64,000 nucleotides of DNA from an uncultured Chloroflexia bacterium (GTDB lineage: Bacteria > Chloroflexota > Limnocylindria > Limnocylindrales > CSP1-4): positions 156,833 through 220,832 of the forward strand of contig CAVWFY010000011.1 of NCBI GenBank assembly GCA_963754485.1. The letters are read 5' to 3'. Below, piece by piece: positions 11,279 to 64,000 of this stretch (position 1 is its first letter; the number at the start of each line of letters is the position of its first letter). A model generated the notes under the pieces. That model was given only the letters and a program-made list of their open reading frames with translations, ran no database searches and was not told the origin of the DNA. The translations under genes and the position numbers were made by a program.

Positions 11279-11387
11279 GACTGGCCCACTCCGGCGCGGT
11301 GGTATTCTCAACGGCCAAACCCGGACCGGGACGCGTGGCCGCCAGCATCGGCAGTGCGCCGGGCCTGAGCGCAACCGCGAGAGGACC

Positions 11388-15346: not shown

Positions 15347-15397
15347 CCGGAGGGGCGGCGCCGCCTGCGATCAGGGGCCCGGCGCGGCACCGGTCCC

Positions 15398-17129: not shown

Positions 17130-17256
17130 GTTCCTCCTGACTGAGCTGGGGCACCCGCGACGGAGCGCGCTGTGGCCACCAGTCTGCCGCAGGCGGGAGC
17201 GTCGCGCTGACGGGTACCGCGCGTTGACAACACGTTAACCGGCGTCGAACGAGTCG

Positions 17257-18036: not shown

Positions 18037-18152
18037 CCGGACCTTAACACCTCGCACACGACCTGTTGACAGCCCGGCCCGAACTTCGGCTCTGTAGAAG
18101 ACCAGAGGCGTCGCACGCGCTCGGGGCGCGACGCCAGACAAGGAGAACCTCC

Positions 18153-19178: not shown

Positions 19179-19199
19179 CCCTGCGGCCCTTCTCCTCCG

Positions 19200-19236
19200 C
19201 GAACGGGCCGGCGCGCTTGGGCGCCCGGCTCGTTCG
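19200..19236 (+). promoter_or_regulatory. GC-rich stem-loop between pstS and pstC (intra-operon attenuator or mRNA-stability element)
   Basis: cgaacgggccggcgcgc-ttgg-gcgcccggctcgttcg imperfect inverted repeat read directly. Confidence 0.35.
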
Positions 19237-19289
19237 TTCCCGTATCCTCGCCACCTACCCTCCGACCACACAGGAGCCGTGACCAGCTG

Positions 19290-20219: not shown

Positions 20220-20229
20220 GAGCTCGACG

Positions 20230-22076: not shown

Positions 22077-22095
22077 GCGGCGGAGGAGCAACCCC

Positions 22096-22869: not shown

Positions 22870-23378
22870 GCCAGCCGCAAGACCGGGACGACCATCACGA
22901 TCACGGCGCGTTCCACGGCGAGGCGGCCCCCGTCCGGGTCCTCGTCGTGTGCACCGGCAACAGCGCCCGCTCGATCCTCGGCGAGGCGCTCCTGCGACAC
23001 CTCGGTGGCGACCGGATCGAGGCCCACTCCGCGGGCACGCACCCGGGCCCGGTCAACCCGCTGAGCCTGCGCGTCCTCGAGGAGGCCGGCATTTCGACGG
23101 AGGGGCTTCGCTCCAAGTCCATCAACGAGTACCTGGGCCAGAGGTTCGACTACGTGATCACCGTGTGCGACGACGCCCGCGACGCGTGCCCGGTCTTCCC
23201 GGGTGTCCACGAGTCCATGCACTGGGGGTTTCCGGACCCGGCGAAGGCCACAGGAACAGACGAGGTCCGGCTCGCGGCGTTCCGCTCCGTGCTGACGGGC
23301 CTCGGACAGCGGATCCACCAGTTCCTCCCCCTGGCGGAGCGCTACGCTGCCCAGCGAACACCCATCGAGCTCGCATGA
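22866..23378 (+). CDS. Arsenate reductase ArsC / low-molecular-weight protein-tyrosine-phosphatase family enzyme
   Basis: P-loop VLVVCTGNSARS (CX5R) plus downstream Cys pair (ITVCDDARDACPVF); ATGA overlap with phoU. Confidence 0.75.
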   Translation: MSQPQDRDDHHDHGAFHGEAAPVRVLVVCTGNSARSILGEALLRHLGGDRIEAHSAGTHPGPVNPLSLRVLEEAGISTEGLRSKSINEYLGQRFDYVITVCDDARDACPVFPGVHESMHWGFPDPAKATGTDEVRLAAFRSVLTGLGQRIHQFLPLAERYAAQRTPIELA

Positions 23379-36650: not shown

Positions 36651-38370
36651 TCAGATGGGCGTGGGAGCGCGACCGGCCAGGAAGGCCTCGACGTCCTCGA
36701 TGGAGCGGACCACCTTCTCGCCGGTCTCGCGGTTCTTGACCTCGATCCCGCCGGCCTCCAGCGAGCGTGGGCTGACGGTGAGGATCCAGGGCATGCCCAG
36801 GAGGTCGGCGTCGGCGAACTTCACGCCCGGGGACTCGTCGCGATCGTCGTACAGGATCTCGTGGCTTGGCCCCGCGGCGGCGGCCAGGTCGTGGAGTCGC
36901 TCCGCGATCACGGTGACCTCGGGGTTCTTGTTGGCGCCGAGCGCGACCAGGTGCGCCGGGTACGGGGCGACCTCGGCGGGCCAGGCGATGCCCCGCTCGT
37001 CGTGGTGGGCCTCGACGATGCAGGCGACGTTGCGCCCGAGGCCGATGCCGTACGAGCCCATGACGATGGGGTGGCGCTCGCCATCCTCGCCCAGGTACTC
37101 GGCACCGAGGGCTCTGGTGTACTTCGTCCCGAGCTTGAAGATGTTGCCGACCTCGATGCCGTTGCGCAGGATCACGGTCCCGCCGCAATCGGGGCAGGCG
37201 TCGCCTTCGCGGACGCTGGCGATGTCGGTGACGATGTCCGGCGTGAAGTCGCGCGGGACGTTGACGTTGCGCAGGTGGAAGCCCGGCCGGTTGGCACCGG
37301 CGACGAGGTTCGCGCTCTTCGCGGCCAGCGCGTCCACGACCACGAGCGCGTCGCGGGCACCTATCGGTGAGCCGTAGCCGGGCTCCATGCCGCGCGCCTT
37401 GATCTCGTCGACCTGGGCCGGGCGCAACCCGCCCACCGCCTTGATCGCGTTGACAAGCTTCGTCTCGTTGACGTCGTGATCGCCCCGGACGATGGCCACC
37501 ACGAACTGGCCGGCACCGGTCACGAAGAAGGTGGCCTTGGCCGTCCTGCTCGTGGGCACGCCGAGGAAGGCGGCCAGGCTGTCGATCGTCGTGGCGTCGG
37601 GCGTCGCGACCTCCTCGATCGCGAGGGGCTCCTCCGCGACCGGGTCCGGCGCCGTCGTCGGCGCGACCTGGCGGTTCGAGGCATAGCCGCAGGACTCGCA
37701 CAGGACGAGCACGTCCTCGCCCGCCGGGTTGAGGAACATGAACTCGTGGGCCAGCGAGCCGCCCATCATCCCGACGTCCGAGGACACGGCCACGGTTGCG
37801 AGGCCCAGGCGCTCGAAGATCCGGGTGTACGCCGCGGTGGTGCGCCCAGTACGCCGTGTCGAGGCCGGCCTCGTCCCGGTCGCAGGTGTAGCTGTCCTTC
37901 ATGACGAACTCGCGGACGCGGATCAGGCCGCCGCGCGACCGGGGCTCGTCGCGGAACTTCGTCTGGAAGTGGTAGACGATGAACGGCAGCTGCCGGTAGC
38001 TCCGCACGATGTCCCGAAGCAGGTCAGCGACGACCTCCTCGTGCGTCATGGCGAGCACCATGTCGCGGTCCGCACGGTCCTTGAAACGGGCCATCTCGGG
38101 GCCGATCGCGTCGTAGCGGCCGGTCTCGCGCCAGAGATCCGCCGGGTGGACCACCGGCATCTCCATCTCCTGCCCGCCGATCGCGTTGAGCTCCTCGCGG
38201 ATCACCTGCTCCACCCGCTTGCTGACGCGGAAGCCCAGCGGCAGCAGCGAGTAGATGCCGGCGCCCAGCTGGCGCACGTAGCCCGCCCGCAGCAGCAGGC
38301 GGTGGGACGGCATCTCCGCCTCGGAGGGATCGTCGCGGAGCGTGGTGAAGAACAGGTTGGAAAGGCGCAT
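36651..38370 (-). pseudogene. proS: Prolyl-tRNA synthetase (bacterial type with editing domain) carrying a single +1 frameshift near 37825-37832; probably a sequencing indel in an essential gene
   Basis: N-terminal 179 aa in one frame (MRLSNLFFTTLRDD...DTAYWAHHR) and the remaining 380 aa (..AYTRIFERLGL...) in another; span is 3n+1; removing one g from cgcggcg restores AHHRAYTRIFERLGL. Confidence 0.85.
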
Positions 38371-38405
38371 GGCGCGAAGGATACCGGGCCGGAGGCGCCG
38401 GGCGG

Positions 38406-41988: not shown

Positions 41989-42240
41989 ATGCTGGAGCCT
42001 GCGCCCCTGGGGCGGTTCCGGCCAACGGCCGATCGGCACAGGCGCGGGCCGCGGATGGCGGGGTCGAACCGGGCACCCCGGCGGCGCACTAGGGTCCGAA
42101 CCGCCCCCGGCCGCACAGCCACGCGTTAACGTCCCATGAACGCCGGTATGCTCTGGGGATCGCGGCACTGCGCGATCGGCCCGTCCCCGCCGCTCGTGGA
42201 ACCCCCTCGTCTCAACACGCATTCGAGGCGCACCGGCATC

Positions 42241-43245
42241 GTGGAAGGCATCACGCTCACGCTTCTCCTCACCATCGCGCTCGCCGTCTTCTTCGACTAC
42301 GTCAACGGCTTCCACGACACGGCGAACGCGATCGCGACCTCGGTCGCCACCAAGGCATTGCGCCCGCAATACGCCATCCTGATGGCGGCGGCGTTCAACT
42401 TCATCGGCGCCTTTGCCGGCACCGCGGTCGCCAAGACGATCGGCGCAGGCCTCGTCAACGAAGAGAGCACGACCCAGGCAATCGTGATGGCAGCGCTGAT
42501 CGGCGCCATCGTCTGGAACCTCATCACGTGGAGGCTTGGCCTGCCGAGCTCCAGCAGCCACGCGCTGATCGGCGGGTTGCTGGGCGCGACGATCGTGGGG
42601 GCCGGCTTCGACCAGCTCAATCTGCCGGGCATCTGGAACAAGGTCATCATCCCGCTGGTCACCTCGCCGATCATCGGCTTCACCATCGCGTTCGGGCTGG
42701 TGATCATGCTGTTCTGGATCTTCCGTCGCGTCCGGCGCCGTCCGCTCGCCACGGGCTTCCGCAGGGCGCAAGTCTTCTCGGCCGGCTTCATGGCGTTCGC
42801 CCACGGCTCCAACGATGCCCAGAAGACGATGGGCATCATCACCCTCGCGCTGGTTGCCGCCGGCATCCTGCCCAATGCCGACACCATCCCCTGGGAGGTG
42901 ATCGTTCTTTCTGCCACCACGCTGAGCCTGGGCACCGCAGTCGGCGGCTGGCGGATCATGAAGACGATGGGGCACAAGGTCGTGGATCTTGAACCCATCC
43001 ACGGGTTTGCCGCGGAGACAACCGCGGCCACCGTGATCTACACCGCCGCCCACTTCGGCATGCCGGTCTCGACGACGCACGTCATCTCGAGCGCGATCAT
43101 GGGCGTCGGCTCGAGCAAGGGCGTGAAGGGTGTCCGCTGGGGCGTCGCCCGCAACATCCTCGGCGCCTGGGTGCTCACGTTCCCGGCGACGATGTTCATC
43201 GGGGCGATCTCCTGGTACGTCCTGAACGCGCTCGGCATCAAGTGA
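42241..43245 (+). CDS. pitA: Inorganic phosphate transporter, PiT family
   Basis: Duplicated GxNDxxN(A/T) motifs (GFHDTANAIAT and GSNDAQKTMGI); GTG start taken at VEGITLTLL. Confidence 0.85.
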   Translation: MEGITLTLLLTIALAVFFDYVNGFHDTANAIATSVATKALRPQYAILMAAAFNFIGAFAGTAVAKTIGAGLVNEESTTQAIVMAALIGAIVWNLITWRLGLPSSSSHALIGGLLGATIVGAGFDQLNLPGIWNKVIIPLVTSPIIGFTIAFGLVIMLFWIFRRVRRRPLATGFRRAQVFSAGFMAFAHGSNDAQKTMGIITLALVAAGILPNADTIPWEVIVLSATTLSLGTAVGGWRIMKTMGHKVVDLEPIHGFAAETTAATVIYTAAHFGMPVSTTHVISSAIMGVGSSKGVKGVRWGVARNILGAWVLTFPATMFIGAISWYVLNALGIK

Positions 43246-43312
43246 TCGACTCCGGCGGCCGCCGGCCGCACCAGACCTCAACGACCTGCACGAACAAGCG
43301 AAGGGGACCCCG

Positions 43313-43927
43313 ATGGTGCGACTGATGCCCAAGGACGAGAAGTTCCAGGAGCTGTTCGTCGATTACGCCCAGACCACCCTCGACGCCGCCCGCAAGCTCG
43401 AGGCCATGATCGTCACCTACGACCGGCTCGACGAGCGCGTCGCCGAGATCCGGGCGCTGGAGCACCACGGCGACGAGACCCAGACCGAGGTCGAGGTGCG
43501 CCTCGACCGCTCGTTCATCACGCCGTTCGACCGCGAGGACATCCACGAGCTCGTCTCGCGGATGGACGACGTGCTCGACCGCATCCAGGAGGTCGCCGAG
43601 ACGTTCGTCATCTACGACGTCAAAGAGCCGACCGACGACGCGCGCCGCATGGCGGGCATCCTGTCCGCCCAGGCAGGCCAGCTGAACGAGGCGATCGGGA
43701 AGCTCGAGGGGCTCAAGGGCCTGGAGTCGAACCTCAAGGCGGTCCACGACCTCGAGAACGAGGCAGACGGCCTGTCGCGCGCCGCCGTGGCACGCCTGTT
43801 TCGCGGTGGCCACGAGGCGATCGAGGTCATCAAGTGGCGTGACATCTACACCGCCATGGAGAACATGATCGACTCCGCCGAGGACGTGGGCGAGGTCATG
43901 GAGCGCATCGTCGCCAAGAACGCCTGA
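43313..43927 (+). CDS. DUF47 (PhoU-like, PiT-associated) protein
   Basis: Typical TIGR00153-like sequence; adjacent to pitA. Confidence 0.8.
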   Translation: MVRLMPKDEKFQELFVDYAQTTLDAARKLEAMIVTYDRLDERVAEIRALEHHGDETQTEVEVRLDRSFITPFDREDIHELVSRMDDVLDRIQEVAETFVIYDVKEPTDDARRMAGILSAQAGQLNEAIGKLEGLKGLESNLKAVHDLENEADGLSRAAVARLFRGGHEAIEVIKWRDIYTAMENMIDSAEDVGEVMERIVAKNA

Positions 43928-43951
43928 GGCAGGAGCAGCTGGGCCAGTGCG

Positions 43952-44647
43952 TCAGGCAGGGCGGCGGAACACGTAGCCGACGCCGCGCACCGTCTGCAGC
44001 AGCTCCGGTGCGGCCGGGTCCTGCTCGAGCTCCGCACGGAGCCAGTGCACGTGCACGTCCACGGTTCGCGACTCGCCGGCGTAGTCGTAGCCCCAGACCT
44101 TCTCCAGGAGCTGGTCGCGGGTGAACACCTGCCCCGGGTTGCGCACGAGGAACGCGAGCAGCTCGAACGCCTTGGGCTTGATGGGCACCGCCTGGCCGTC
44201 ACGCAGGACACGGTGACCGGCGAGGTCCACCTGGACCTGGCCCAGATCCACGAACGGCGGCGGGGCCTGCGTCGCGGCCAGCTGCTCGGCGCGGCGGAAG
44301 ATCGCGCGGATGCGGGCGGTGAGCTCACGCAGGCTGAAGGGCTTGGTCACGTAGTCGTCCGCGCCCAGCTCCAGGCCCACGACCTTGTCCACCTCGCCGT
44401 CGCGGGCGGTCAGCATGATGATCGGGACCTGCGACTCCGCGCGGAGAATCCGGCAAACCTCGACACCGGACAGCTCCGGCAGCATGAGGTCGAGGAGCAC
44501 GAGGTCCGGCTGGTCGGCACGGAAGCGGATCAGCGCCTCGCGTCCGTTTGCGGCGGGGATGGCCCGGTAGCCCTCGAGCTCGAGCGCCTCAACGAGGGTC
44601 TCGCGCAGGGTCTTCTCGTCGTCCACGACGAGGATGGTGCGGATCAT
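43952..44647 (-). CDS. OmpR-family response regulator (PhoP/RegX3-like) with a canonical receiver
   Basis: ILVVDDE, LVLLDLMLP, LTAR, K-containing loop and trans_reg_C. Confidence 0.9.
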   Translation of the reverse strand: MIRTILVVDDEKTLRETLVEALELEGYRAIPAANGREALIRFRADQPDLVLLDLMLPELSGVEVCRILRAESQVPIIMLTARDGEVDKVVGLELGADDYVTKPFSLRELTARIRAIFRRAEQLAATQAPPPFVDLGQVQVDLAGHRVLRDGQAVPIKPKAFELLAFLVRNPGQVFTRDQLLEKVWGYDYAGESRTVDVHVHWLRAELEQDPAAPELLQTVRGVGYVFRRPA

Positions 44648-50066: not shown

Positions 50067-50198
50067 CCCTCGCGGCGGCGGATCAGCTCACGAGGCGTAG
50101 AGACGCGCCACCGATGTCCCTGGTGCCGCGCCGAGCGTGAAGAAGACCCCGCGCCGAAGACCAGGCCGAGCACGGTCGGGGCGGAGGAAGGCGATCGT

Positions 50199-52604
50199 CT
50201 ACTGGCTCGCGAGCGCTCCCCGCACCTGACCGTCGTGGACCGCTGCCAGCTGGGCCTCGTCCAGGGCCGGGTGGAGGTCGATCTCGATCCGGTCGATCCT
50301 TCCCGTGAACGGGAAGCGGTGCGGGTACGGCCCCACGGGCGCCCCCGTGTCCACGCCGACGTCGAGCGTTTCCCCGCTCATCGAGAACAGGAACGGGACC
50401 GTCCGCTCGATCCGACCCCCCGCGACCTCCCGGTCATCGACGGTGAGCCGGATCCGCCCGCCCTTTCCCAGCCCGCCGCCGTCGTAGTCGAAGTGCACCC
50501 CCAGCACGATTTCGCCCGTCGGAAGGGGATCCGTGCCGGCGATCCGGGTCAGGATCCGGCCGAACAGGTTGTAGTAGTAGACGGGACATCCGTCCTGGAC
50601 GTAGAGCGACCAGCCGGCCATGTTGCCGCCCTGGCAGATGACGACGCCTTCCGCGCCACCCTCCGGGATCGCCAGCTTCGCCCGCAGGTCGAACGACGTG
50701 TTCTTGAGGCTCACGGACGCGAGCTCGGGGAGGCGGACGTGGTCGCGGTACAGGGTGAAGCTCGTCTTCCCGTCGAGGAGGCTGGGCCGGTTGTGCGGGA
50801 GCGCACGGAGAGTCGTCTGGTCGCTGAGCGGGTACACGCCGAATGCCCGTGCCTCGCGGTCGAAGATGGCCTGGAGCTCACGGAGCTTCTCGGGGAACTG
50901 CGCGGCGACGTCGGCGGCCTGGCTGAAATCGTCATCGACGCGATAGAGCTCCCAGCGCTCGCTCTCCCCGAACTCGACGGCTTGTGATCGCACCCACGGC
51001 AGGCGGCCGTGGAAGCAGGCGGCCACCCATCCCTCGTGGTAGATCGCGCGGTTGCCGAGGATCTCGAAGTACTGCGTCGTGCGCCGGCTAGTGGCCGCGG
51101 CGTCGTCGAACGTGTAGCGGAGGCTCACGCCCTCCATCGGTCGCTGCTCGATGCCGTTGACCACGGCCGGCTCTTCGATACCCGCGACATCGAGGATCGT
51201 CGGAACGAGGTCGATGACGTGGTGGAACTGCGACCGAAGCTCGCCGCGGGCGACCATGCCGATCGGCCACGAGACCGCCATGCCGTTGCGGGTGCCGCCG
51301 AAGTGGGAGGCGACCTGCTTCATCCACTGGAACGGCGCGTCGAGCGCCCAGGCCCAGGCGACGTTGAAATGGTTCTCGCAGCGAGGCGACCCGAAGTCGT
51401 CGATGTGGGCCAGCAGCCACTCGGGATCCTCGGGCTCGCCGTTCTGGAACGACGGCGAGCTCCACGCGCCGTGCAGCGTCCCCTCGCCCGATGCCCCGTT
51501 GTCACCCACCAGGTAGACGACGAGCGTGTTCTCCGCCTGGCCGAGATCGCCCAGGGCGTCGAGCAGGCGCCCAACCTGGGCATCGGTGTGGGCGAGGAAG
51601 GCCGCGTAGACCTCCATCAGCCGGCGGGCGACCGGCTTGTAACGGTCCGGGTAGTCGTCCCACGCGGGGATCTGCTCGGGGCGGGGTGTGAGGATGGTGC
51701 CCGGCGGGATGACGCCCAGCTCGAGCTGGCGGGCGTGGGTCCGCTCCCGGAGCGCGTCCCAGCCGTCGTCGAACTGGCCGCGGAACCGCTCGATCCATTC
51801 CGGCCAGACATGGTGCGGCGCGTGCGTGGCGCCCGGCGAGAAGTAGACGAAGAATGGCTTGTCGGGCGCCGCCGCCTTCTGGAGGCGCATCCACTCGATC
51901 GTGCGGTCGGCCAAGTCCTCCGTCAGGTGATAGTCCTCACGACCGACGTACGGCTCGATCGGCGTCGTCTGGTCGTAGAGGGCCGGTTCCCACTGCGACG
52001 CCTCGCCGCCCAGGAACCCGTAGAAGCGCTCGAAGCCCAACCCCGTGGGCCAGCGGTCAAAGGGCCCGGCCGGGCTCGTCTCCCACATCGGCGTGACGTG
52101 AGCCTTGCCGAACATCGCGGTGCTGTAGCCGTTGAGGCGGAGGATCTCGGCGACGGTCGCGGTGCTGCGCGGGATGATCCCGTCGTAGCCCGGGAAGCCG
52201 TAGGCGATCTCGGAGATCCCGCCCATGTGGGCGCTGTGGTGGTTGCGGCCCGTCAGGAGCGCGGCCCGGGTCGGCGAGCACAGCGCCGTCGTGTGGAACC
52301 GGTTGTACGTCACTCCCTGGGCCGCGACGCGGTCAAGCGCGGGCGTGGGGACCGGCCCACCGAAGGTGCTCGGGGCCCCGAACCCGACGTCGTCGTACAT
52401 CACGACGATCACGTTCGGGGCGCCCGTTGGCGCGCGCTCGATCTCAGGGCGCGATGGCGTCGATGCGGTCGCCAGCTCGGCGATGACGCCGCCGAACGGG
52501 CGCTCCGGGCGCGGGAGACGTCCCGTCGGGCGGTCGGGGGCTGACAAGGAATCCTCCGCGCTCAGGGAGCTCCCAGCCGGCAGGCGCCCTCGGGTCGCGC
52601 TCAT
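50199..52604 (-). CDS. Arylsulfatase (formylglycine-dependent sulfatase family)
   Basis: CSPTRAALLTGR (C-x-P-x-R FGly motif) and GKAH; 801 aa. Confidence 0.85.
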   Translation of the reverse strand: MSATRGRLPAGSSLSAEDSLSAPDRPTGRLPRPERPFGGVIAELATASTPSRPEIERAPTGAPNVIVVMYDDVGFGAPSTFGGPVPTPALDRVAAQGVTYNRFHTTALCSPTRAALLTGRNHHSAHMGGISEIAYGFPGYDGIIPRSTATVAEILRLNGYSTAMFGKAHVTPMWETSPAGPFDRWPTGLGFERFYGFLGGEASQWEPALYDQTTPIEPYVGREDYHLTEDLADRTIEWMRLQKAAAPDKPFFVYFSPGATHAPHHVWPEWIERFRGQFDDGWDALRERTHARQLELGVIPPGTILTPRPEQIPAWDDYPDRYKPVARRLMEVYAAFLAHTDAQVGRLLDALGDLGQAENTLVVYLVGDNGASGEGTLHGAWSSPSFQNGEPEDPEWLLAHIDDFGSPRCENHFNVAWAWALDAPFQWMKQVASHFGGTRNGMAVSWPIGMVARGELRSQFHHVIDLVPTILDVAGIEEPAVVNGIEQRPMEGVSLRYTFDDAAATSRRTTQYFEILGNRAIYHEGWVAACFHGRLPWVRSQAVEFGESERWELYRVDDDFSQAADVAAQFPEKLRELQAIFDREARAFGVYPLSDQTTLRALPHNRPSLLDGKTSFTLYRDHVRLPELASVSLKNTSFDLRAKLAIPEGGAEGVVICQGGNMAGWSLYVQDGCPVYYYNLFGRILTRIAGTDPLPTGEIVLGVHFDYDGGGLGKGGRIRLTVDDREVAGGRIERTVPFLFSMSGETLDVGVDTGAPVGPYPHRFPFTGRIDRIEIDLHPALDEAQLAAVHDGQVRGALASQ

Positions 52605-52716
52605 TGTCGCCCATCGCGTTGCCTTCGGGATCGTGAATGCCCGATGTACCCTACGGCCGAGGCCGGACCTGCGGCGCGCACGACCTCACCAGTCACCACC
52701 CGGTGATGGCAGATGG

Positions 52717-54330
52717 GTGCGCGGCCGGTCGAGGGGCCCAGCGTTGCACAAGCCGCCAATCCCGGCAGTCATCGCGGAGCTGTTCGAAGCACCTGTCGCT
52801 CGCAACGGGCTGATCGCGGGAACGCTCGCCCTCGTGGCAGCCGCCCTCGATCCCAAGGTCTGGAGCGCATCCCTGCCCACGATCCAGGCCGTGATCCGGG
52901 AGCGTCCGAGCGTGGAATCGCTGGTCCTGCTCGCGGCGGTCGGGGGCGCCGCCCTCCTCCTCGTCGGCGGCGCCGTCGGTGACACGGTTCGCGCCCGGCG
53001 CGTCATCGTGGGCGGGCTGGCCGTCGAGCTGGCCGCGGCGGTGGCGAGCCTGCTCGTCCCCTCGGGACCACTGTTCGTCGCATCGAGATTCATCGGGCAT
53101 GGGGCGGCGGCGTTCGTCATCCCGGCATCGCTTGCGCTCGTCGCACTGAGCTACAGGGGCATCCCGCGCGCCACGGCGATCGGCATGGCCTACGGCGCCT
53201 ACAGCGGTGCGGCCGCCGTGGCGCCGATCCTCCTGCAGCTTTCGCCCGGACTGCGTGCCCCTGCCTTCGTGGCCGCCATCGTGGCGTGCGTCCTCGCGCT
53301 GTGGCTCGTCCGCTCGCGGATCCCGGATCTCGATCGACCGACGCTGCCCGAACGGCCGTACGTTGTCAGGACGGCCATCTGGGCCTTCGGCATCATCTCT
53401 CTCACGGTGGGCCTCACGTGGGTGGGTGCGGGCTGGGACAACCCGCTGCGCCTGGGCCTGGTCATCGGCGGCGTCGGCATCGTGGGTCTCGCGCTCCTCC
53501 GCGACCGGGCACGGTCCGGCTCCGGTCACGCGGGCGTCAGGATCGAGCGACGGCCAGCCGCGATCGCCGTCATCATCGGGGTGATCCTCGGCATCGCCCA
53601 GACAGCGCCGATGCTCGAGCTCCCGCGCTACTTCCAGCTCGTCCTCCGCTTCAACCCGGTGCTTGCCGTCGTGGCACTGGCGCCGCTCTTCGGAGCGCTC
53701 GTGGTGGCGGGGCCGGCCGCGGGTTTCATGCTGGCGCGCTGGTCGCCACGGAGGCTCGTCGGTGCGGGAGCCATCGTGGTGGGCGTCGGCAACCTGCTCC
53801 TGGCCGTCGTGGTCACGGCCTCGACGGGCTACCTGCTGTTCGTGATCCCGTGCTTCCTCATCGGGGCAGGGTTCGTCGTCGCCACTACTGTGAGGACAGC
53901 CATCATCTTCGCGAGTGTCCCGCGCGGGCTGCCCGCCACGGCAGCTGCGCTGAACGAGGCATCGATCTCGGTCGGCAACAGGATCGGCATCGTGATCATC
54001 ACCGCGCTCGTCGCCGAGATCGCGATCACAACGTACACGGCCAGCGTGGCCGGGCTGCCCGCGACCGAGGCCCAACAAGCGATCGCGGGCTTTCGCGATG
54101 TCCTGGTCGCGGTCGGCACGCCGTCCTTCGTCGCGGCGTCGGAAGCCGTCGCGTCCGTCGATGCGTCGGCGTACATGCAGGCGTACGCCTCGGGTGTGGG
54201 CACCGCGCTCGCACTGAGTGGCGTCGTGGTGATCATCGGCGGCGCCATCGCGTGGCTTGCCCTCGGCCATCGGGACCCATTGGCGACCGTGTACGAGCAT
54301 CGCGACGAGCGGGTCGTGACGGGGGTCTGA
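52717..54330 (+). CDS. MFS transporter
   Basis: 12-14 predicted TM helices; the start is uncertain (GTG 52717 or TTG 52744); the upstream part of the 701-aa ORF is a shadow of the sulfatase. Confidence 0.7.
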   Translation: MRGRSRGPALHKPPIPAVIAELFEAPVARNGLIAGTLALVAAALDPKVWSASLPTIQAVIRERPSVESLVLLAAVGGAALLLVGGAVGDTVRARRVIVGGLAVELAAAVASLLVPSGPLFVASRFIGHGAAAFVIPASLALVALSYRGIPRATAIGMAYGAYSGAAAVAPILLQLSPGLRAPAFVAAIVACVLALWLVRSRIPDLDRPTLPERPYVVRTAIWAFGIISLTVGLTWVGAGWDNPLRLGLVIGGVGIVGLALLRDRARSGSGHAGVRIERRPAAIAVIIGVILGIAQTAPMLELPRYFQLVLRFNPVLAVVALAPLFGALVVAGPAAGFMLARWSPRRLVGAGAIVVGVGNLLLAVVVTASTGYLLFVIPCFLIGAGFVVATTVRTAIIFASVPRGLPATAAALNEASISVGNRIGIVIITALVAEIAITTYTASVAGLPATEAQQAIAGFRDVLVAVGTPSFVAASEAVASVDASAYMQAYASGVGTALALSGVVVIIGGAIAWLALGHRDPLATVYEHRDERVVTGV

Positions 54331-54573
54331 CCGGGGTAGTCGCAACCGAGGTGGGCTTGGAGTAGCCCGTTCGTCGCCGGTGACGTGACGCAATCCACCG
54401 GACGATCGCGTCGCTAGACTTCCTCGAAACCGGGTCGGGCGATCGGAAGGCTGGGGACGACAATCTCGAGACCAAGCAACGGCAGGCCAGAAGCGGCGGG
54501 TGCGCCCGTTGGCGACGATGGCACGGCATTCCGGCCGTCGTTTCCGCTCGTCGATGCGAAGCTGCGCAAGCCC

Positions 54574-56790
54574 GTGTTGCGACCCTGGATCGTGCGGAGG
54601 GATCGCGTCGTCCGAGTCCTCATGGCCGAGCCCTGGGCACCGGTTGTCTCGGTCATCGCGCCGCCCGGCTACGGGAAGACGATCCTCCTCGCGGACTGGG
54701 CGTCTCGCGAGCGACGGCCCGTCACGTGGCTCACCATCGACGACTACGACAACGAGCCGAGCGTCTTCCTCACCTACCTCGCCGCGGCGCTCGACCGCCT
54801 CGCCCCGATCGATCCGGGGGTCGGACGGGCAATCGCCTCCTCGCCGACGCGTCTCCTGGGGACGGCGGTGCCGCGCCTTGCGGCTGCTGTCCACCGGATC
54901 GGCGAGCCGGCCGTCCTCATCCTCGACGACGCACACCGGCTGGTCGATCGGACGTGCCTCGATGCCCTCGTCGCGCTCATCGACCACCTGCCGGACGGAT
55001 TCCAGGTTGCCCTTGCTGGGCGCGCCGAGCCGGACCTGAATCTCGCCAGGCTCCGCGCTCGCCGGGACCTCCTCGAGATCGGGGCGTCCGAACTCGCCCT
55101 CGACGTGGACGAGACGAAGCGACTCACTGACGCGGCGGGGCGTTCGCTCACGCCCGACCAGGTCAGCGTGCTCCGCGAACGGACCGAAGGTTGGGCGACG
55201 GGCATCTACCTGGCCACGCTGGCCGGTGCCGGGTCCGTCGATCCCGGCCGCGCGACCGTGATGGTGTCCGGCCAGGATCCGGCGATCGCCGACTATCTCC
55301 GTTCCGAGCTGCTGTCCAGCCTCGGCGACGAGGACCAGACATTCCTCACCAGGTCGTCGATCCTCGAGGTCGTCGAACCTTCGGTCGCCGAGGCCGTGAC
55401 CGGGATGCGCGGAGCGGCGGAGCGCCTGCGGTCGCTGGCCCGGGACAATCGTCTCGTCGCGCCGCTCGCGGGCGGTGCGCCCTCCTACCGGTTCCACCAC
55501 GTCCTGTCCGAGTACCTGCGGGCCGAGCTCGAGCGCCGGGAGCCCGGGGCGACGACGGAGCTTCATCGCCGCGCCGCCACCTGGTTCGAGGATGCGGGCC
55601 GACCCGAGGTCGCGATCGAGCACGCGCTGGCCGGTGCCGATCAAGCGACCGCGGCGCGTCTCGTCGTTGCGATCACCTTGCCGATGCACTACGCGGGGCA
55701 CACGGACCTGCTCGATCGCTGGATCCGGACCTTTGACGAGACGACGTTCGAGCGGCTTCCGCCGCTGGCCGTCGTTGGCGCGTTGGTGAACGGCGTCACC
55801 GGGAGGGCGGAGGCGGCCGAGCGACTAGCCCACATCGCCGAACGCTCGACGTTCGCCGGAATTCCTGGGGACGGTTCTGCGTCATTCGAGTCTGCGCGCG
55901 CGATCCTGCGGGCGGCCATGGCTCGGCGCGGTCCAGACGATATGCTCGCGAACTCCCGGCTGGCGGTCGAGGCCGAGCCGCCGACCAGCCCATGGCGCCC
56001 GATGGCCCTCTACGGTCTGGGCGCCGCGCACATCCTGCGTGGCGAGTTCGCCACGGCCGACGCCGTCCTGGCCGAGGCCGTCGATGGCGCAGCCCCCGCC
56101 GGCACGTCTCCGTTCTACGGGCTGGCCATGCGCTCGACCCTCGCGATGGCACGGGCCGACTGGCGAATCGCCGAGCGACTCGCACAGGAGAGCCATGCCG
56201 CCTTCGACGCGACACGGCTTCGAGACGTCGCCACCGCCATCCACGTCCACGCCGTCTCTGCCCGCGTGGCCATCCATCGTGGCGACAGCGCGCGCGGCCG
56301 CGAGGAGCTCGTCCACGCCCAGCTCGTCCGTCCGCTGGCTTCGTACGCGCTGCCGTGGACCGCGGTCGGGGCACTCATCGAGCTCGCCCGGGCCTACCTG
56401 GCGATCGCCGACACGGCGGGTGCCCGGACGGCCGTCGCCGAGGCGGAGGAGGTGGTGCGCCGACGGCCCGACCTCGGCCTGCTGACGGACCGCCTCGCCG
56501 AGCTGCGCCGCCAGGTGGACGCCGCGGCGAGCTCGCTGGCCGGACCGTCGACGCTCACCCCCGCCGAGCTCCGGGTGCTGCCCCTGCTCTCCACGCATCT
56601 CACGTTCCAGGAGATCGCGGACCGCCTGTTCAACTCCCGCAGCACGATCCACTCCCACGCGATGGCCATCTACACGAAGCTCGAGGTCAGCGGCCGCGGC
56701 GAGGCCGTCGAGCGGGCGATCGAGCTCGGCCTCCTGGAGCCGTTCCCCGGGCTCAGGCTCACGGCGCGGAGCCAGCCGGACGGGGACTGA
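54574..56790 (+). CDS. LAL/MalT-type large ATP-binding LuxR-family regulator
   Basis: P-loop APPGYGKT, long TPR-like middle region, C-terminal LuxR HTH (LTPAELRVLPLL...TIHSHAMAIYTKL). Confidence 0.8.
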   Translation: MLRPWIVRRDRVVRVLMAEPWAPVVSVIAPPGYGKTILLADWASRERRPVTWLTIDDYDNEPSVFLTYLAAALDRLAPIDPGVGRAIASSPTRLLGTAVPRLAAAVHRIGEPAVLILDDAHRLVDRTCLDALVALIDHLPDGFQVALAGRAEPDLNLARLRARRDLLEIGASELALDVDETKRLTDAAGRSLTPDQVSVLRERTEGWATGIYLATLAGAGSVDPGRATVMVSGQDPAIADYLRSELLSSLGDEDQTFLTRSSILEVVEPSVAEAVTGMRGAAERLRSLARDNRLVAPLAGGAPSYRFHHVLSEYLRAELERREPGATTELHRRAATWFEDAGRPEVAIEHALAGADQATAARLVVAITLPMHYAGHTDLLDRWIRTFDETTFERLPPLAVVGALVNGVTGRAEAAERLAHIAERSTFAGIPGDGSASFESARAILRAAMARRGPDDMLANSRLAVEAEPPTSPWRPMALYGLGAAHILRGEFATADAVLAEAVDGAAPAGTSPFYGLAMRSTLAMARADWRIAERLAQESHAAFDATRLRDVATAIHVHAVSARVAIHRGDSARGREELVHAQLVRPLASYALPWTAVGALIELARAYLAIADTAGARTAVAEAEEVVRRRPDLGLLTDRLAELRRQVDAAASSLAGPSTLTPAELRVLPLLSTHLTFQEIADRLFNSRSTIHSHAMAIYTKLEVSGRGEAVERAIELGLLEPFPGLRLTARSQPDGD

Positions 56791-56917
56791 CGTCTGGCTT
56801 GCGAAGTCGACTGATCTGGTCGATGCGCCGCGCCCGGGATGGGCGGACCGTTCATGCACAGAGCAGCGGCTCTCGACAGACCGCGCACGCCACGGATACG
56901 GATGAGAGGGATCGACC

Positions 56918-58081
56918 ATGGCCGCCGAACGAGTCTCCACCACCGTCCCGCTGAACTGGAACGAGGTCTGGTTCACCAACTGCCCCATGGTCTCCGCCAA
57001 CAACGTGGACCAGGAGTTGGGGTGGTGCCGCGAGGAGTTCAAGAAGATCGGCGTCGACTACGCCTACTTCCGCCACGCTCCCGAGAACAACTGGTACCCG
57101 CACTACATCCACAACCTCGACAACCTGATCCGCTTCGGCGGCCTCTACCCGCCGATCCACGTCAACGCCGACATCCGTCGCACCGTGCTGCTCGGCGCGA
57201 CGTGGGTCTACGAGGGCGGCTGCATGGCCGTGCGCGCCGACGACAAGCTGTTCCGGATGCAGGACCTCAAGGGCAAGAAGGTCGGCATCAGCAAGAGCCT
57301 GAACACCATCAAGAACGACTGGTGGCGGATCCAGGAGCACATGGGCATCGAGAACATGCTCATGCTCAACGGCATGACCATGGACGACATCGAGCTCGTC
57401 GAGTTCCCGTACCCGGACGACTGGTACGACAAGCCCGAGATGCTCGCGGTCACGATGAACAACCCGTCCGAGCTGTGGATGCGCCGCGACCACAAGCACG
57501 ACTACGCCTTCCGCCCGCTCGAGAAGGCCCTCCTGGCCGGCACCGTCGACGCGATCTACACGCAGAGCAAGGTGTTCCAGCACATCCAGGAGGCGACCGG
57601 CCAGCTCGCGATGATCGAGGACCTGACCCGGTACCCGGACTGGCGGGTCCAGGTCGCCAACACGCCGGCCGTCATCACCTGCACGGACGTCATGGCCGAC
57701 GAGCACCCCGAGCTGGTCGTCGCCTACATGAAGGCCATGATCAAGGTCGGCCGCTGGGCGAACGAGAACAAGCACGCCGCCGGCGCGATCCTCAACCGCC
57801 AGACCTTCTACCTCGATGCCGAGGACACGTACCAGGGCATCAAGGACGTCGACATGGTCCCGAGCCTCAGCGCCCGGAACCTGCAGACGATCAAGATCGG
57901 CAAGGACTTCATGTTCAGCCACGGCTACATCAAGCACGACTTCGACGTGGACGAGTGGGCACGCCCGGAGTTCCTCGAGCAGGCGGCGACCGAGGTGCTC
58001 AAGGAGGAGTGGGAGCGCCGAAGCTGGAGCAAGCTGCCGCACGGCGGCGGGCTCGAGGTGGAAGGCGTCCGGCTCGGCTGA
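56918..58081 (+). CDS. Cytoplasmic SsuA/THI5-fold protein resembling DszB (2'-hydroxybiphenyl-2-sulfinate desulfinase family)
   Basis: No signal peptide; TNCPMVSA near the N-terminus (DszB has an SNCPVPNA-like Cys nucleophile motif) and IRFGGLYPP (DszB has a TRFGGEIPP-like motif). Confidence 0.55.
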   Translation: MAAERVSTTVPLNWNEVWFTNCPMVSANNVDQELGWCREEFKKIGVDYAYFRHAPENNWYPHYIHNLDNLIRFGGLYPPIHVNADIRRTVLLGATWVYEGGCMAVRADDKLFRMQDLKGKKVGISKSLNTIKNDWWRIQEHMGIENMLMLNGMTMDDIELVEFPYPDDWYDKPEMLAVTMNNPSELWMRRDHKHDYAFRPLEKALLAGTVDAIYTQSKVFQHIQEATGQLAMIEDLTRYPDWRVQVANTPAVITCTDVMADEHPELVVAYMKAMIKVGRWANENKHAAGAILNRQTFYLDAEDTYQGIKDVDMVPSLSARNLQTIKIGKDFMFSHGYIKHDFDVDEWARPEFLEQAATEVLKEEWERRSWSKLPHGGGLEVEGVRLG

Positions 58082-58190
58082 CGCGTCGGCGCAACGGAAC
58101 GTGCAGGCGGCACAGGCCGCCACGTCACGTTGCTGCGCCACGAGGCGGCCCGAACCTCGCGAGATCCGGGCCGCCTCGGTCACCGAGCCC

Positions 58191-58229
58191 AACCGGGACG
58201 TACATGCTCGGCTACCCGACCGGGACGTA
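58191..58229. repeat. Direct repeat ACCGGGACGTAC x2 (27-bp periodicity) upstream of the crotonase gene
   Basis: Copies at 58191-58202 and 58218-58229; read directly. Confidence 0.35.
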
Positions 58230-58315
58230 CCACCGGATCCCGGTGCGCAAGCCCGTGGACGTCACCTGGCACTGAACGCCGGCCACCGGGACATCGTCAG
58301 CGAAGAAGGACGACC

Positions 58316-59173
58316 ATGACCACTTCTAACGGCACCCGCATGCAGCAGCTCGGCTACCGCGCGCCCGACGCGGTCCCGGAGCCCGAGCAGCTCGTCCTCG
58401 TCGACTACGTCTCGGAGGGGCGGATCGCGGTCATCACCATCAACCGGCCCCATGCCCTCAACGCCGTCACGACGGCCCTCGCGGCGCAGCTCATCGAGAT
58501 CCTCGAGACGATCAGCGCCCGGGCCTCCGTCCGCGTGGCGATCCTCACGAGCGCGGGCGACGAGGCCTTCTCGGTCGGCGGCGACCTGTACGAGCGCAAG
58601 TCGATGACGCAGGAGCAGTGGCTCCGCCAGCGCCAGGTGTTCGACCGGGTGCTGTTCGAGCTGCGCCAGTCCCGCCGCCCGATCTTCGCCGCCGTCCACG
58701 GGATGGCCTACGGCGGCGGCTGCGAGATGGCGATCAGCACCGACTTCATCATCGCCAGCGACGACGCCGTTTTCGGCCAGCCAGAGGCGATGGTCGGGCT
58801 GTCGGCGGGCGGCGGCTCGCCGGTCTTCCTGCCCCGCTTCCTCCCGCCCGGCAGGGCGATGCAGATGCTGATGACGGGGCAGCCGATCACCGCCCAGGAG
58901 GCGTACCGGCTGGGCATGGTCAACGAGGTCCACCCGCGAGCCGAGCTCATGGACGCCGCGCTGCGGATCGCCGAGCAGATCGCGATCAACTCGCCGACCG
59001 CGGTGCAGGCGGTCAAGCGGGCGGTGCAGATGGGCCAGGGCGAGCCGGTGGAGCAGGCGATCGCGATCATGATGGAGGAGCACTGGCGCTCGGTCGTCCA
59101 TGCCGATCGTGTCGAGGGCATCCATGCTTTCGTCGAGGAGCGCGAGCCCGTCTTCGCCGACCCTGACGTCTGA
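58316..59173 (+). CDS. Enoyl-CoA hydratase/isomerase (crotonase) family protein
   Basis: RPHALNAV, GDEAFSVGGDL, AAVHGMAYGGGCEMAISTDF; GAAGGA RBS before the ATG at 58316. Confidence 0.85.
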   Translation: MTTSNGTRMQQLGYRAPDAVPEPEQLVLVDYVSEGRIAVITINRPHALNAVTTALAAQLIEILETISARASVRVAILTSAGDEAFSVGGDLYERKSMTQEQWLRQRQVFDRVLFELRQSRRPIFAAVHGMAYGGGCEMAISTDFIIASDDAVFGQPEAMVGLSAGGGSPVFLPRFLPPGRAMQMLMTGQPITAQEAYRLGMVNEVHPRAELMDAALRIAEQIAINSPTAVQAVKRAVQMGQGEPVEQAIAIMMEEHWRSVVHADRVEGIHAFVEEREPVFADPDV

Positions 59174-59243
59174 TCTTCGGCTCTGCGGCCGGACCGTTCC
59201 CGCCGCCGGCCGCCGCCCCAACATCCTCACCAAGGAGGCCGCG

Positions 59244-59845
59244 ATGAGCGAGACCAACCCCATCGAGACGATCGCCCTGGCGCGACAGACCGGCCTCGGG
59301 CTGTACGTCACCGCCAAGGAGGCGTACGACATGTGGCAGGCCGACCCGGGCCTGAAGATCCTCGACGTCCGCACGCCCGGAGGAGTTCGTCTTCGTCGGC
59401 CACGCACCGATGGCCACGAACATCCCGTTCGCGCTCCAGACCTACGAGTGGGATCCGGAGAAGAAGGCGCTCCGCTGGGAGCTCAACCCCGAGTTCGTCG
59501 CGGCGGTGCAGGCGTGGGCCGCGCCCGACGAGCAGATCCTCGTCGCGTGCCGGTCCGGCGGCCGCTCCGCGATGGCGATCAACATGCTGGCGAAGGCCGC
59601 CGGGTACACGCGCGGCCTGGAACATCCTCGACGGCTGGGAGGGGAGCCAGGTCAAGGACCCCGAGAGCGTCTTCGACGGCATGCGCATGAAGAACGGCTG
59701 GAAGAACTCCGGCCTGCCCTGGACCTACGAGATCGATCCCCGAACGGATGCAGCTGCCGCCGCGCGAGAGCCGCGACGTTCGTGGCCGGGAACGAGCACG
59801 ACTGACGTACGACCGCGGTCCACCGTCCGCGCCGACGAGGAGTGA
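59244..59845 (+). pseudogene. Rhodanese-domain sulfurtransferase gene interrupted by two +1 frameshifts (near 59378 and near 59614)
   Basis: AAGGAGG RBS; LKILDVRTP | EEFVFVGHAPMATNIPF...ILVACRSGGRSAMA...GYTR | WNILDGWEG spread over three frames; span is 3n+2; both shifts are single-base insertions at G/C dinucleotides. Confidence 0.65.
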
Positions 59846-59847
59846 GC

Positions 59848-60714
59848 ATGCTCTCGGAGACCCTGCAGGTCATCACCCAGGTCGCGATGCTCGTGTTCGT
59901 GGTCGGCAGCATGGCCGCCATGGGCCTGGGCCTGACCGTCGCGCGGATCGCCCAGCCGCTGCGCGACGTTCGGCTGGTGGTGGCGCTGCTCGTCGTCAAC
60001 TTCGTCGTCGTCCCCGCGGCTGCCATCGCGGCGGCGCGGCTGCTGCCGATGGAGCCTGCCGCGGCGACCGCCGTCGTGCTGATCGGATGCGTGGGTGGCG
60101 CGCCGTTCCTGCCCAAGCTCGCCAAGCTGGCCAAGTCGAACCTGGCCCTCGCGGTCGGGGCGATGGTCCTCCTCATGGTCGTCACGATCGGGTACGCGCC
60201 GATCGTGGTGCCGCTGGCGGTCGAGGGCGCGACGGTGGACCCGCTCGCGATCGCGCAGTCGCTCGTCCTGTTCATGCTCATCCCGCTCGGCCTCGGGCTC
60301 CTCGTGCGCGCCCGCTACCCGGAGCTGGCCGACGACTGGGTCGGCCGGGCCGGCCACGCGTCCACCATGGGACTGCTCCTCGGGATCGGGAGCGCGCTCC
60401 TGCTGACCTGGCGCGAGGTGATCGGCTCGATCGGGACGTACATCTTCGTGGGCCTCGCGATCATCCTCGTGGTCGGGCTGCTTGCCGGCTGGCTGGCCGG
60501 CATGGGACGCCCATCGGGCGAGCGCACGCTGATGGGGCTCGCGACCGCGAACCGCAACATCGCGGCGGCGCTCGTCATCGCCACGTCGATCGGCGGCGAC
60601 ACCATCGTGTACACGCTCGTCGGAGCGCTGACGATCCCCGTCGTGCTGATCGTGCTCGCCGGCCAGATCGGCCGCCGCTCCGTCGCGACCGAACCGCTCC
60701 CGAGTACCGCGTAG
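59848..60714 (+). CDS. Bile acid:sodium symporter (BASS) / ACR3-like family transporter
   Basis: About nine TM helices with BASS-like sequence; ATG at 59848. Confidence 0.65.
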   Translation: MLSETLQVITQVAMLVFVVGSMAAMGLGLTVARIAQPLRDVRLVVALLVVNFVVVPAAAIAAARLLPMEPAAATAVVLIGCVGGAPFLPKLAKLAKSNLALAVGAMVLLMVVTIGYAPIVVPLAVEGATVDPLAIAQSLVLFMLIPLGLGLLVRARYPELADDWVGRAGHASTMGLLLGIGSALLLTWREVIGSIGTYIFVGLAIILVVGLLAGWLAGMGRPSGERTLMGLATANRNIAAALVIATSIGGDTIVYTLVGALTIPVVLIVLAGQIGRRSVATEPLPSTA

Positions 60715-63437: not shown

Positions 63438-64000
63438 TCACACGTGGGGCGCGACGCCCTCGGCGAGCTGCCGCATCAGGTCGACCTGCGCGTCGTACTC
63501 GAGGAGCGGGAAGTGGCTGCGCGCGACGAGCTCGACGGGCACCCCCGCCTGCTTGCGGATGTCGAGGAGAGCATCGACGAGCTCGTCCGGGGTCCCGGCG
63601 AACGTCGCCCGGCCCTTCACGAGCGCCTCGACCGGGCGATCGAAGGGCGGCGCGGCCGGCGGCGGGAGCGGGCGGGTCGCCGAGGCCTCCATGTCGGAGT
63701 ACTTCCACTGCATCGCCCACAGCGCGTCGCGGTAGCGGGCGAGCGCCTCCTCGCGCGATGGGCCGGGCAGCAGGATCGAGTAGTGGACGAACCGGAAGGT
63801 CGACGGGTCGCGACCGATGCGCTCGCACTCGTCGAGCACCCAGCCCACCTGTTCGACGAACGCCGCGGCCGGGGCGTTCGCGAAGATCCCGTCGGCGAGG
63901 CGTGCGGCGCGGCGTATCGCGGGCTCGGCGCTGCCGCCGACCAGGACTGGGATCCGCCTGGCGGGCACCGGCCGGACCGCGAGCGTCGGGAGGTCGTAGA
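63438..64000 (-). CDS. LLM-class (luciferase-like) flavin/F420-dependent oxidoreductase, C-terminal part (gene continues past the window end)
   Basis: IPVLVGGSAEPAIRRAARLADG motif typical of the LLM C-terminal half; the reading frame is open through 64000. Confidence 0.7.
   Translation of the reverse strand, partial: YDLPTLAVRPVPARRIPVLVGGSAEPAIRRAARLADGIFANAPAAAFVEQVGWVLDECERIGRDPSTFRFVHYSILLPGPSREEALARYRDALWAMQWKYSDMEASATRPLPPPAAPPFDRPVEALVKGRATFAGTPDELVDALLDIRKQAGVPVELVARSHFPLLEYDAQVDLMRQLAEGVAPHV

Follow-up and report, generated by a model that had tools for sequence, protein, structure and literature searches.

A DszB-family protein and a rhodanese at the core of a conserved gene unit that abuts an arylsulfatase-transporter pair in a Chloroflexota genome

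Positions 50199 to 60714 of a 64,000-nucleotide stretch of DNA (hereafter the window), part of a 427-kb contig of a Chloroflexota metagenome-assembled genome (MAG) whose Upp protein clusters with Candidatus Limnocylindrales, hold seven genes that an earlier, sequence-only reading had taken for a single organosulfur-scavenging island: an arylsulfatase, a major facilitator superfamily (MFS) transporter, a LAL/LuxR regulator, a homologue of the desulfinase DszB, a crotonase, a rhodanese and a BASS/ACR3-like transporter. We located all seven and found them contiguous, from the stop end of the minus-strand sulfatase at 50199 to the stop codon of the BASS gene at 60714, but they do not form one unit. 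The region consists of two independent units side by side: unit A, made of the sulfatase and the MFS transporter, and unit B, which runs from the LAL regulator to the BASS transporter. Our best explanation of the whole, to which we give a probability of about 55%, is that units A and B are juxtaposed and that the core of unit B is a DszB-family enzyme and a rhodanese working through a desulfinase-type mechanism.

The window has a G+C content of about 70%; its genes were chosen by their third-position GC (GC3) and then checked against Pfam, NCBIfam and PDB sequences. For comparison we gathered 86 loci holding a DszB-like gene, 6 of them starting from single homologues and the other 80 from a survey in which each species was represented by one genome. 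Recurrent neighbours were identified by an unbiased clustering of every open reading frame (ORF) within 10 kb of the DszB-like gene in these 86 loci. Compared loci are numbered L0xx and DszB-family homologues P0xxx.

The boundary between the two units can be seen from both sides. The sulfatase of locus L090 clusters with that of the window at 90% protein identity or more, and L090 shares with the window both the chromosomal context (GluRS, IdeR, DnaJ, asparaginase II and upp) and the divergent sulfatase-MFS pair. Positions 50199-54336 align with L090 at 85.6% DNA identity (blastn), and the homology ends at the MFS stop codon; beyond it L090 has unrelated genes, with no LAL, DszB-like, crotonase, rhodanese or BASS gene adjacent. 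From the other direction, in L011 and L045, two relatives that have the module, similarity to the window sets in only at 54,493-54,502, and the homology of L008 and L019 runs up to 60,678-60,697 (blastn). The junction is thus confined to 54337-54492, between the MFS and LAL genes. In this Chloroflexota lineage unit A is anchored beside the housekeeping genes upp, asparaginase II, IdeR and GluRS. We also considered an origin of unit B as a mobile element and rejected it, as there are no flanking tRNA genes, terminal repeats or composition shift; nor did any integrase or transposase domain turn up in the flanking ORFs scanned.

With these breakpoints, it seems improbable to us that the seven genes are one co-regulated organosulfur-scavenging island under the LAL regulator, induced by sulfate starvation, in which the sulfatase would free sulfate, the DszB-like enzyme would free sulfite from sulfinates, the transporters would import the substrates and the regulator would control them all. 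It is true that all seven products can plausibly be tied to sulfur or anion chemistry. Also, in 7-8 of the 86 loci a long sulfatase, of the 780-800-aa type, lies no farther than 10 kb from the DszB-like gene, above the 1-2% or so that we estimate for chance, and in three of them (L035, L046 and L082) it directly follows the rhodanese or the DszB-like gene. It is therefore conceivable that the two units are functionally connected in some way, but the association is weak, and several of those loci come from related MAGs. On the other side stand the synteny, broken between the MFS and LAL genes in both directions, and the close relative L090, which has the sulfatase-MFS pair at the equivalent site but lacks the module. 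The MFS transporter resembles DHA2 efflux pumps, and just 2 of the 86 loci have it near their DszB-like gene. The description of the region as a sulfate-starvation-type module fares no better. Pfam and NCBIfam searches of 50199-60714 revealed none of the marks of a sulfate-starvation-induced regulon, be it control by CysB, Cbl or SsuR, the oxygenases SsuD, TauD or AtsK, or ABC importers for sulfonates or sulfate esters, and no enzyme generating formylglycine (FGly), as judged by an FGE-type domain, was found among the window ORFs scanned, in a search confined to the window. The fusions of CoA-disulfide reductase with rhodanese (CoADR-RHD) and the SulP transporters that accompany the module elsewhere fit the handling of sulfite or persulfides at least as well as scavenging.

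The central gene of unit B (56918-58081, plus strand) encodes a cytoplasmic protein of 387 aa whose relation to DszB is well supported. In a single-sequence search DszB was its only PDB match. A profile of 30 family members that did not include DszB matched DszB (2DE2) over its full length with E=1e-43, and SsuA, the true sulfonate-binding proteins, with 3e-11. The AlphaFold2 model (pLDDT 87.7) has a type II periplasmic-binding-protein fold most similar to DszB, which takes ranks 1-3 in a Foldseek search of the PDB (2DE3/2DE2, E=3e-19, TM(target) 0.73-0.78). Only eight columns are invariant in the 30 members, down to 25% identity: C22, H62, R72, G74, G75, G119, L148 and P250. The first five, which include the Arg72-Phe-Gly74-Gly75 motif, correspond to Cys27, His60 and Arg70-x-Gly-Gly of DszB, and Cys22, in FTNCPMV, aligns with YSNCPVP of DszB and is invariant also in 87 orthologues. 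In DszB, Cys27 is essential, a C27S variant being inactive, His60 and Arg70-x-Gly-Gly contact the SO2 group of the sulfinate, and the RXGG motif is conserved in DszB homologues (PMC6100217). The homology to DszB proposed earlier is therefore confirmed. Its predicted fold and active site make the protein a member of the DszB family, though not an orthologue of DszB itself.

DszB itself is the 2'-hydroxybiphenyl-2-sulfinate desulfinase of the 4S dibenzothiophene pathway. The two proteins have the same fold, keep the same catalytic residues, and are both cytoplasmic and without signal peptide, but their identity is only about 21-24%. Neither the operon nor the top 30 families of recurrent neighbours includes a monooxygenase of the dszA or dszC kind (luciferase-like or acyl-CoA-dehydrogenase-like); the neighbours here are rhodanese, LAL, BASS, SulP and CoADR-RHD genes. 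The clade also has an extra conserved C-terminal tail (…EEWERRSWSKLPxGGG…) and an extreme conservation, described below, that is not known for DszB, and its substrate need not be an aryl sulfinate.

In databases the protein is called an ABC transporter substrate-binding protein. No hydrophobic leader, signal peptide or lipobox is present at its N-terminus (MAAERVSTTVPLNWNEVWFTNC…), and the module contains no ABC permease or ATPase gene; only 10 of the 86 loci have a member of an ABC ATPase family, and the median distance to it is 4.7 kb. The annotation is therefore wrong, and the protein is not a transport binding protein. This is of some consequence, as thousands of entries of the clade bear that name despite having no leader, no transporter partners and the full DszB catalytic set. 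NCBIfam has no model specific for the clade, and our literature search on combinations of DszB-like proteins, rhodanese and desulfinase turned up no account of it.

The nearest full-length relatives outside the clade share only 28-44% identity with the protein, and clustering at 50% leaves the clade essentially as one cluster. Among these relatives is the P0137 subfamily, known from paralogue arrays in Opitutaceae TAV5, Uliginosibacterium and Mesorhizobium, whose members have the same length, keep the invariant Cys, His and RxGG, lack a signal peptide and likewise bear the annotation "substrate-binding protein". Their context is different: 2-7 tandem leaderless copies stand in operons of SsuA/NMT1-type ABC importers that also hold nitroreductase, SCO1/SenC and PCuAC-like genes (L087 of Opitutaceae TAV5, L088 and L089), with no rhodanese neighbour. 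Their identities follow an ordinary gradient, from 87% down to 53%. These arrays are another uncharacterised system of the DszB family. Within the clade, four homologues (P0009, P0023, P0092 and P0107, the last encoded at L006:8001-9350) bear a Lys/Ala-rich N-terminal extension of 60-95 aa, probably disordered, with a short helical motif, e.g. LAELLAAKPHLKDELGE. It resembles a targeting or cargo-loading peptide, and no encapsulin was seen in the neighbourhoods.

What sets the clade apart is its conservation. Our scan of one genome per species found a close relative of the protein in at least 527 species, whose lineages come from soil, freshwater, marine and wastewater habitats. Across 87 orthologues the median pairwise identity is 89% (minimum 75%), and 47% of columns are invariant, including three cysteines (C22, C37 and C255). 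These orthologues carry the labels Chloroflexia, Actinomycetota, Thermoleophilia, Alpha-, Beta- and Deltaproteobacteria, Cyanobacteria, Bacteroidota, Ignavibacteria, Nitrospira and Acidobacteriota. In our estimation, the protein would rank with the most constrained ones that we know of. Recent horizontal transfer would be the obvious cause, but for the deep comparisons we could reject it. GC3 of the gene ranges from 0.45 to 0.98 and tracks each host; synonymous sites are saturated against low-GC hosts (pS 0.76-0.97, with dN 0.06-0.14); and the partner genes of these loci are far less alike, with identities of 67% (rhodanese), 42% (BASS) and 33% (LAL). Transfer probably accounts for the patchy distribution and not for the identity of the proteins. 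It is the DszB-family protein alone, and not its partners, that is under extreme purifying selection. Copies with 88-89% identity were also seen in two MAGs labelled Methanoregulaceae and Methanosarcinales (L083 and L084), which could reflect transfer across domains or contamination during binning.

Such conservation invites the thought that the protein is not an enzyme at all, but a cytoplasmic ligand-binding or sulfur-carrier protein, either a sensor partner of the regulator or a persulfide carrier that would exchange sulfur with the rhodanese through Cys22. The invariance of 47% of columns and of C22, C37 and C255, above what is usual for a hydrolase or lyase acting on small molecules, would then reflect protein-protein contacts, and the periplasmic-binding-protein fold, the database name and the very frequent pairing with rhodanese would all be in keeping with it. 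However, the set that stays invariant down to 25% identity comprises the catalytic Cys, His and RxGG of DszB, even in relatives that have no rhodanese neighbour, and the protein has neither a signal peptide nor an ABC transporter partner. We therefore regard a purely non-enzymatic role as very unlikely.

The neighbourhoods show the rhodanese to be the most frequent companion of this protein. A rhodanese lies near the DszB-like gene in 61 of the 86 loci, at a median gap of 79 bp, and is the immediately downstream gene on the same strand in 37 of 84; a gene with a rhodanese domain occurs within 10 kb in 67. In Synechococcus and in a roseobacter the unit is reduced to these two genes. Other partners recur less often: a LAL homologue in 37 loci, SulP anion transporters in 26, BASS transporters in 18-19, CoADR-RHD fusions (TIGR03385, E=9e-127, plus a rhodanese domain) in 13-15 and the crotonase in 10-12. 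The ties of the DszB-like gene to rhodanese, BASS and crotonase thus hold beyond the window. In the Chloroflexia MAGs L008, L019 and L009 the order LAL, DszB-like, crotonase, rhodanese, BASS is nearly identical, and it is looser in Anaerolineae; as a rule these relatives carry two rhodaneses, one more than the window. In evolutionary terms, unit B centres on the DszB-family gene and the rhodanese next to it.

The same neighbourhoods bear on a reading without sulfur chemistry, in which the protein would be a decarboxylase with periplasmic-binding-protein fold acting together with the crotonase in the catabolism of aromatic or unsaturated acids, the sulfur genes being incidental. The family profile is weakly similar to a 4,5-dihydroxyphthalate decarboxylase of that fold (9jp7, E=0.0045), carboxylate and sulfinate are alike in shape, and the crotonase is adjacent in 10-12 loci. 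Yet rhodanese is the dominant neighbour, CoADR-RHD and SulP genes recur, and DszB is far closer in profile searches (1e-43 against 4.5e-3), all of which makes this reading extremely improbable.

The rhodanese of the window (59244-59805, plus strand) is not intact as sequenced; it falls into three reading-frame pieces, none of them with a family match. When aligned with five intact orthologues, it shows four single-base insertions, at 59376, 59614, 59738 and 59774. Once they are removed, the gene encodes a single-domain rhodanese of 185 aa (PF00581, E=3.9e-12) with the active-site loop CRSGGRS, so that the earlier call of a rhodanese sulfurtransferase stands for the family and not for the integrity of the gene. 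The corrected protein is 96% identical to its orthologue in L008, with a pN/pS of 0.19, equal to that among intact orthologues (0.14-0.22), and hence shows no decay other than the indels. Elsewhere in the window, the essential prolyl-tRNA synthetase (ProRS) gene (about 36651-38390, minus strand) is split by a single extra C, CACCAC[C]GCGGCG, near 37,840-37,860, which leaves the N-terminal catalytic part in one frame and the remainder (editing domain, rest of the core, anticodon domain) in another. This break suggests that the contig carries sporadic insertion errors. Because the rhodanese shows no decay beyond its indels, and because an essential gene is split by the same kind of lesion, we consider it fairly probable that the rhodanese frameshifts are sequence errors rather than the marks of a true pseudogene. 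Detection of frameshifts across the whole window from GC3 periodicity proved too noisy, since antisense frames mimic coding ones, and those in ProRS and rhodanese are the only ones we regard as established.

Indel errors are also common in metagenomic records of the DszB family. Three homologues (P0016, which is named as a fusion of substrate-binding protein and rhodanese, P0007 and P0100) are frameshift read-throughs with junk linkers, and we discarded gene fusion as evidence that the two proteins are coupled.

The closest solved relative of the rhodanese is the thiosulfate sulfurtransferase Ab-RLD (8W14, E=2.5e-13), the encapsulin-associated rhodanese of Acinetobacter baumannii. Ab-RLD has been shown experimentally to be a thiosulfate sulfurtransferase, binds thiosulfate tightly and carries persulfide and thiosulfate adducts (PMC10925157). 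The Arg-rich loops are nearly identical (CRSGNRS in Ab-RLD, CRSGGRS here) and a C-terminal KNGW…LPW motif is found in both, whereas the rhodanese of the module has a C-terminal tail of its own, ending …FVAGNEHD. From the likeness of the loops we predict a rhodanese that is catalytically competent in type. The link to encapsulins does not carry over: no encapsulin, cysteine desulfurase or serine acetyltransferase is among the top neighbour families of the 86 loci.

Put together, these elements suggest how unit B may work. The function that we consider most likely, by analogy with DszB, is the release of sulfite from a sulfinate-type anion, with sulfur passed on through the rhodanese. The LAL regulator, replaced by an AraC type in proteobacteria, would sense a small molecule and switch on the operon, and the BASS transporter, or SulP in other genomes, would transport a sulfur-containing anion across the membrane. 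The DszB-family enzyme would then bind an SO2(-)-type group through His62 and Arg72-x-Gly-Gly, and Cys22, as a proton donor, would break the bond to sulfur and release sulfite, as in DszB. The rhodanese would act just before or just after this step. Rhodaneses accept thiosulfonates as donors, and the enzyme could take the sulfane sulfur off a thiosulfonate to yield the sulfinate substrate; alternatively, it could join the sulfite to a persulfide to give thiosulfate. The CoADR-RHD fusion, where present, would reduce the resulting persulfide, and in genomes that have the crotonase this enzyme would hydrate an enoyl-CoA made from the carbon skeleton. As the crotonase is a canonical hydratase, an acyl-CoA skeleton may be involved at least in those genomes.

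Part of this evidence can be read in another way, namely that unit B detoxifies reactive sulfur species and sulfite rather than scavenging nutrients. Rhodaneses, with the CoA-persulfide reductase of other genomes, would process persulfides, thiosulfate and sulfite, SulP or BASS would export the anion, and the DszB-family protein would act on an inorganic or thiol-bound sulfur oxyanion (an S-sulfonate or thiosulfate) instead of a carbon-bound sulfinate. The recurrence of CoADR-RHD, SulP and BASS genes, often with two rhodaneses per locus, is consistent with this, as are the tight binding of thiosulfate and the adducts of the closest solved rhodanese. Also, the His and Arg-x-Gly-Gly of DszB contact an SO2 group that is common to S-oxyanions, and the minimal two-gene form in autotrophs (Synechococcus and Nitrospira) suits an endogenous or inorganic substrate. 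Comparison with the cst and CoAPR operons (S. aureus cst; E. faecalis CoAPR, RhdA and RhdB; Npsr) cuts both ways. Single-domain rhodaneses, CoADR-RHD and an anion transporter are held in common, but the DszB-like module has no persulfide dioxygenase, sulfide:quinone reductase or CstR-type repressor (the first two are also missing from the top neighbour families), the central DszB-family gene is absent from those operons, and the module of the window is without CoADR-RHD. Moreover, LAL and AraC regulators are usually sensors of organic effectors and are not known as persulfide sensors, and the subset with crotonase implies an organic acyl-CoA skeleton. We find detoxification rather unlikely as the main role, though worth keeping in mind.

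The two units with a desulfinase-type core in unit B remain our preferred explanation. Besides the sulfatases that lie near some DszB-like genes, several points weigh against it. The desulfinase chemistry is extrapolated from low identity to DszB and from conserved active-site residues. Among the genes that recur in the neighbourhoods, none would oxidise or assimilate sulfite. To our knowledge, DszB-type ipso-protonation is known only for aryl sulfinates, and nothing marks an aromatic substrate here. A simple hydrolytic role leaves the conservation unexplained, and the protein may have a different or additional function, for instance in binding a protein partner or as part of an assembly. Finally, the four indels of the rhodanese fall within 560 bp, with none in 5.2 kb of neighbouring genes, which is unlike randomly placed sequencing errors.

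A bolder possibility, which we put forward tentatively and think less than even in its chances, is that the DszB-family protein and the rhodanese together make up a two-component sulfur enzyme, found throughout the bacteria, that has so far gone unrecognised and is wrongly listed everywhere as an ABC substrate-binding protein. It would supply a missing step of the sulfur cycle by taking sulfite off a ubiquitous sulfinate, thiosulfonate or S-sulfonate. Candidate substrates would be methanesulfinate, hypotaurine or thiotaurine, cysteine sulfinate, and S-sulfonates of CoA or other thiols. Were this true, the identity of 75-97% across phyla would stem from an unusual constraint on the mechanism or from an obligate protein complex.

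A conserved DszB-family protein often paired with a sulfurtransferase is in any case a strong candidate for an unrecognised reaction of organosulfur or reactive sulfur. DszB is the rate-limiting enzyme of biodesulfurisation, and natural relatives with other substrates are for this reason of applied interest. As to method, the case illustrates how a thematic reading of adjoining genes can merge unrelated units, which comparative synteny separates.

The remaining genes of unit B agree with their family assignments. The regulator (54574-56790, plus strand; 738 aa, at the short end of its family; 86.7% DNA identity to L011) has the LAL/MalT-like architecture, with AAA_22 and AAA_16 matches over residues 19-151, a Walker A motif GYGKT, a MalT-like region (NF003420, E=8.5e-77 over residues 6-504, below the cut-off) and a GerE (LuxR) helix-turn-helix at 660-713, which bears out the LAL/LuxR call. 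Its homologues lie at a median gap of 644 bp from the DszB-like gene, usually upstream and in the same orientation. A role as local switch is thus reasonable for the five genes of unit B, and not for the sulfatase and the MFS transporter to which the sequence-only reading had extended it. The crotonase (58316-59173, plus strand; 285 aa; PF00378, E=5.6e-60) was likewise named correctly: it has both catalytic Glu motifs (GGGCE and GQPE), aligned with its best PDB relative, the short-chain enoyl-CoA hydratase 5z7r (E=3e-46), and its counterparts in other loci are 78-98% identical to it. The transporter (59848-60714, plus strand; about 288 aa from the ATG at 59848, with an alternative GTG at 59842) belongs to the BASS/SBF family (PF01758, E=1.2e-13). 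No NCBIfam model for ACR3 matched at E<=0.01, the similarity found there being weak and to PanS/BASS; the family profiles thus suggest a generic BASS transporter, and the ACR3 half of the earlier label is not supported.

The gap of 234 bp between the DszB-like gene and the crotonase holds intergenic elements that a repeat search placed at 58141-58230 (plus strand): a palindrome with 19-nt arms at 58141-58178, followed by two 16-nt direct repeats, CCCRACCGGGACGTAC, at 58188-58203 and 58215-58230, 27 nt apart. Their arrangement is possibly that of an attenuator or operator. Scans of this 70% GC sequence for promoters and terminators gave nothing usable.

In unit A, the sulfatase (50199-52604, minus strand; 801 aa; PF00884, E=1e-62) is a type I, FGly-type enzyme as had been proposed, with the motif C109-S-P-T-R113 aligned with the CxPxR of the arylsulfatase 7all. 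Its nearest PDB relatives are 7all and AtsA of P. aeruginosa (1HDH), with E=1e-52 to 1e-56 over residues 58-589; it has no obvious signal peptide. AtsA shares the C-x-P-x-R motif and aligns over residues 62-589 (E=2e-52). In comparison with AtsA and the long actinobacterial AtsA-type sulfatases, the protein of the window has about 210 extra C-terminal residues, which lie outside the coverage of any solved structure. Unlike in AtsA systems, it is paired with a DHA2-type MFS transporter, not with ats/ssu sulfate-starvation genes, and the window ORFs scanned offered no FGly-generating enzyme beside it. The transporter (52717-54330, plus strand; 537 aa from a GTG start that agrees with the 537-aa gene call in L090; PF07690, E=4e-17) does have the MFS_1 domain. 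Its best NCBIfam similarity is to the DHA2 efflux pumps SmvA/EmrB, below the cut-off, so that it looks like an exporter rather than an importer. The two genes diverge from a 112-bp intergenic region (52605-52716), arranged in the same way in L090, that presumably holds the shared promoters of unit A.

Some observations concern the surroundings of the two units. At L090:12364-16501, about 4.7 kb with SfLAP, DUF6325, TelA and hypothetical genes stand between upp and the sulfatase; in the window this interval is 132 bp (50067-50198). A DUF6325 protein is also found in 13 of the 86 loci with a DszB-like gene. Lying 2.7 kb past the BASS gene and outside the conserved boundary of the module (60.70 kb), a fragment of a luciferase-like monooxygenase (LLM) gene runs off the end of the window (63438-64000, minus strand). 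DszA belongs to the LLM superfamily.

Farther away, ARAGORN called an 89-nt tRNA-like gene at 6868-6956 with a two-base "anticodon (cg)", which is probably a false or aberrant call. A phosphate-regulon neighbourhood, unrelated to the sulfur genes, occupies 11262-23378 and 42136-44647, with ppk1, CYTH-CHAD, pstSCAB, phoU, a low-molecular-weight phosphatase, a PitA/PHO4 transporter, a PhoU_div/DUF47 protein and an OmpR-type response regulator.

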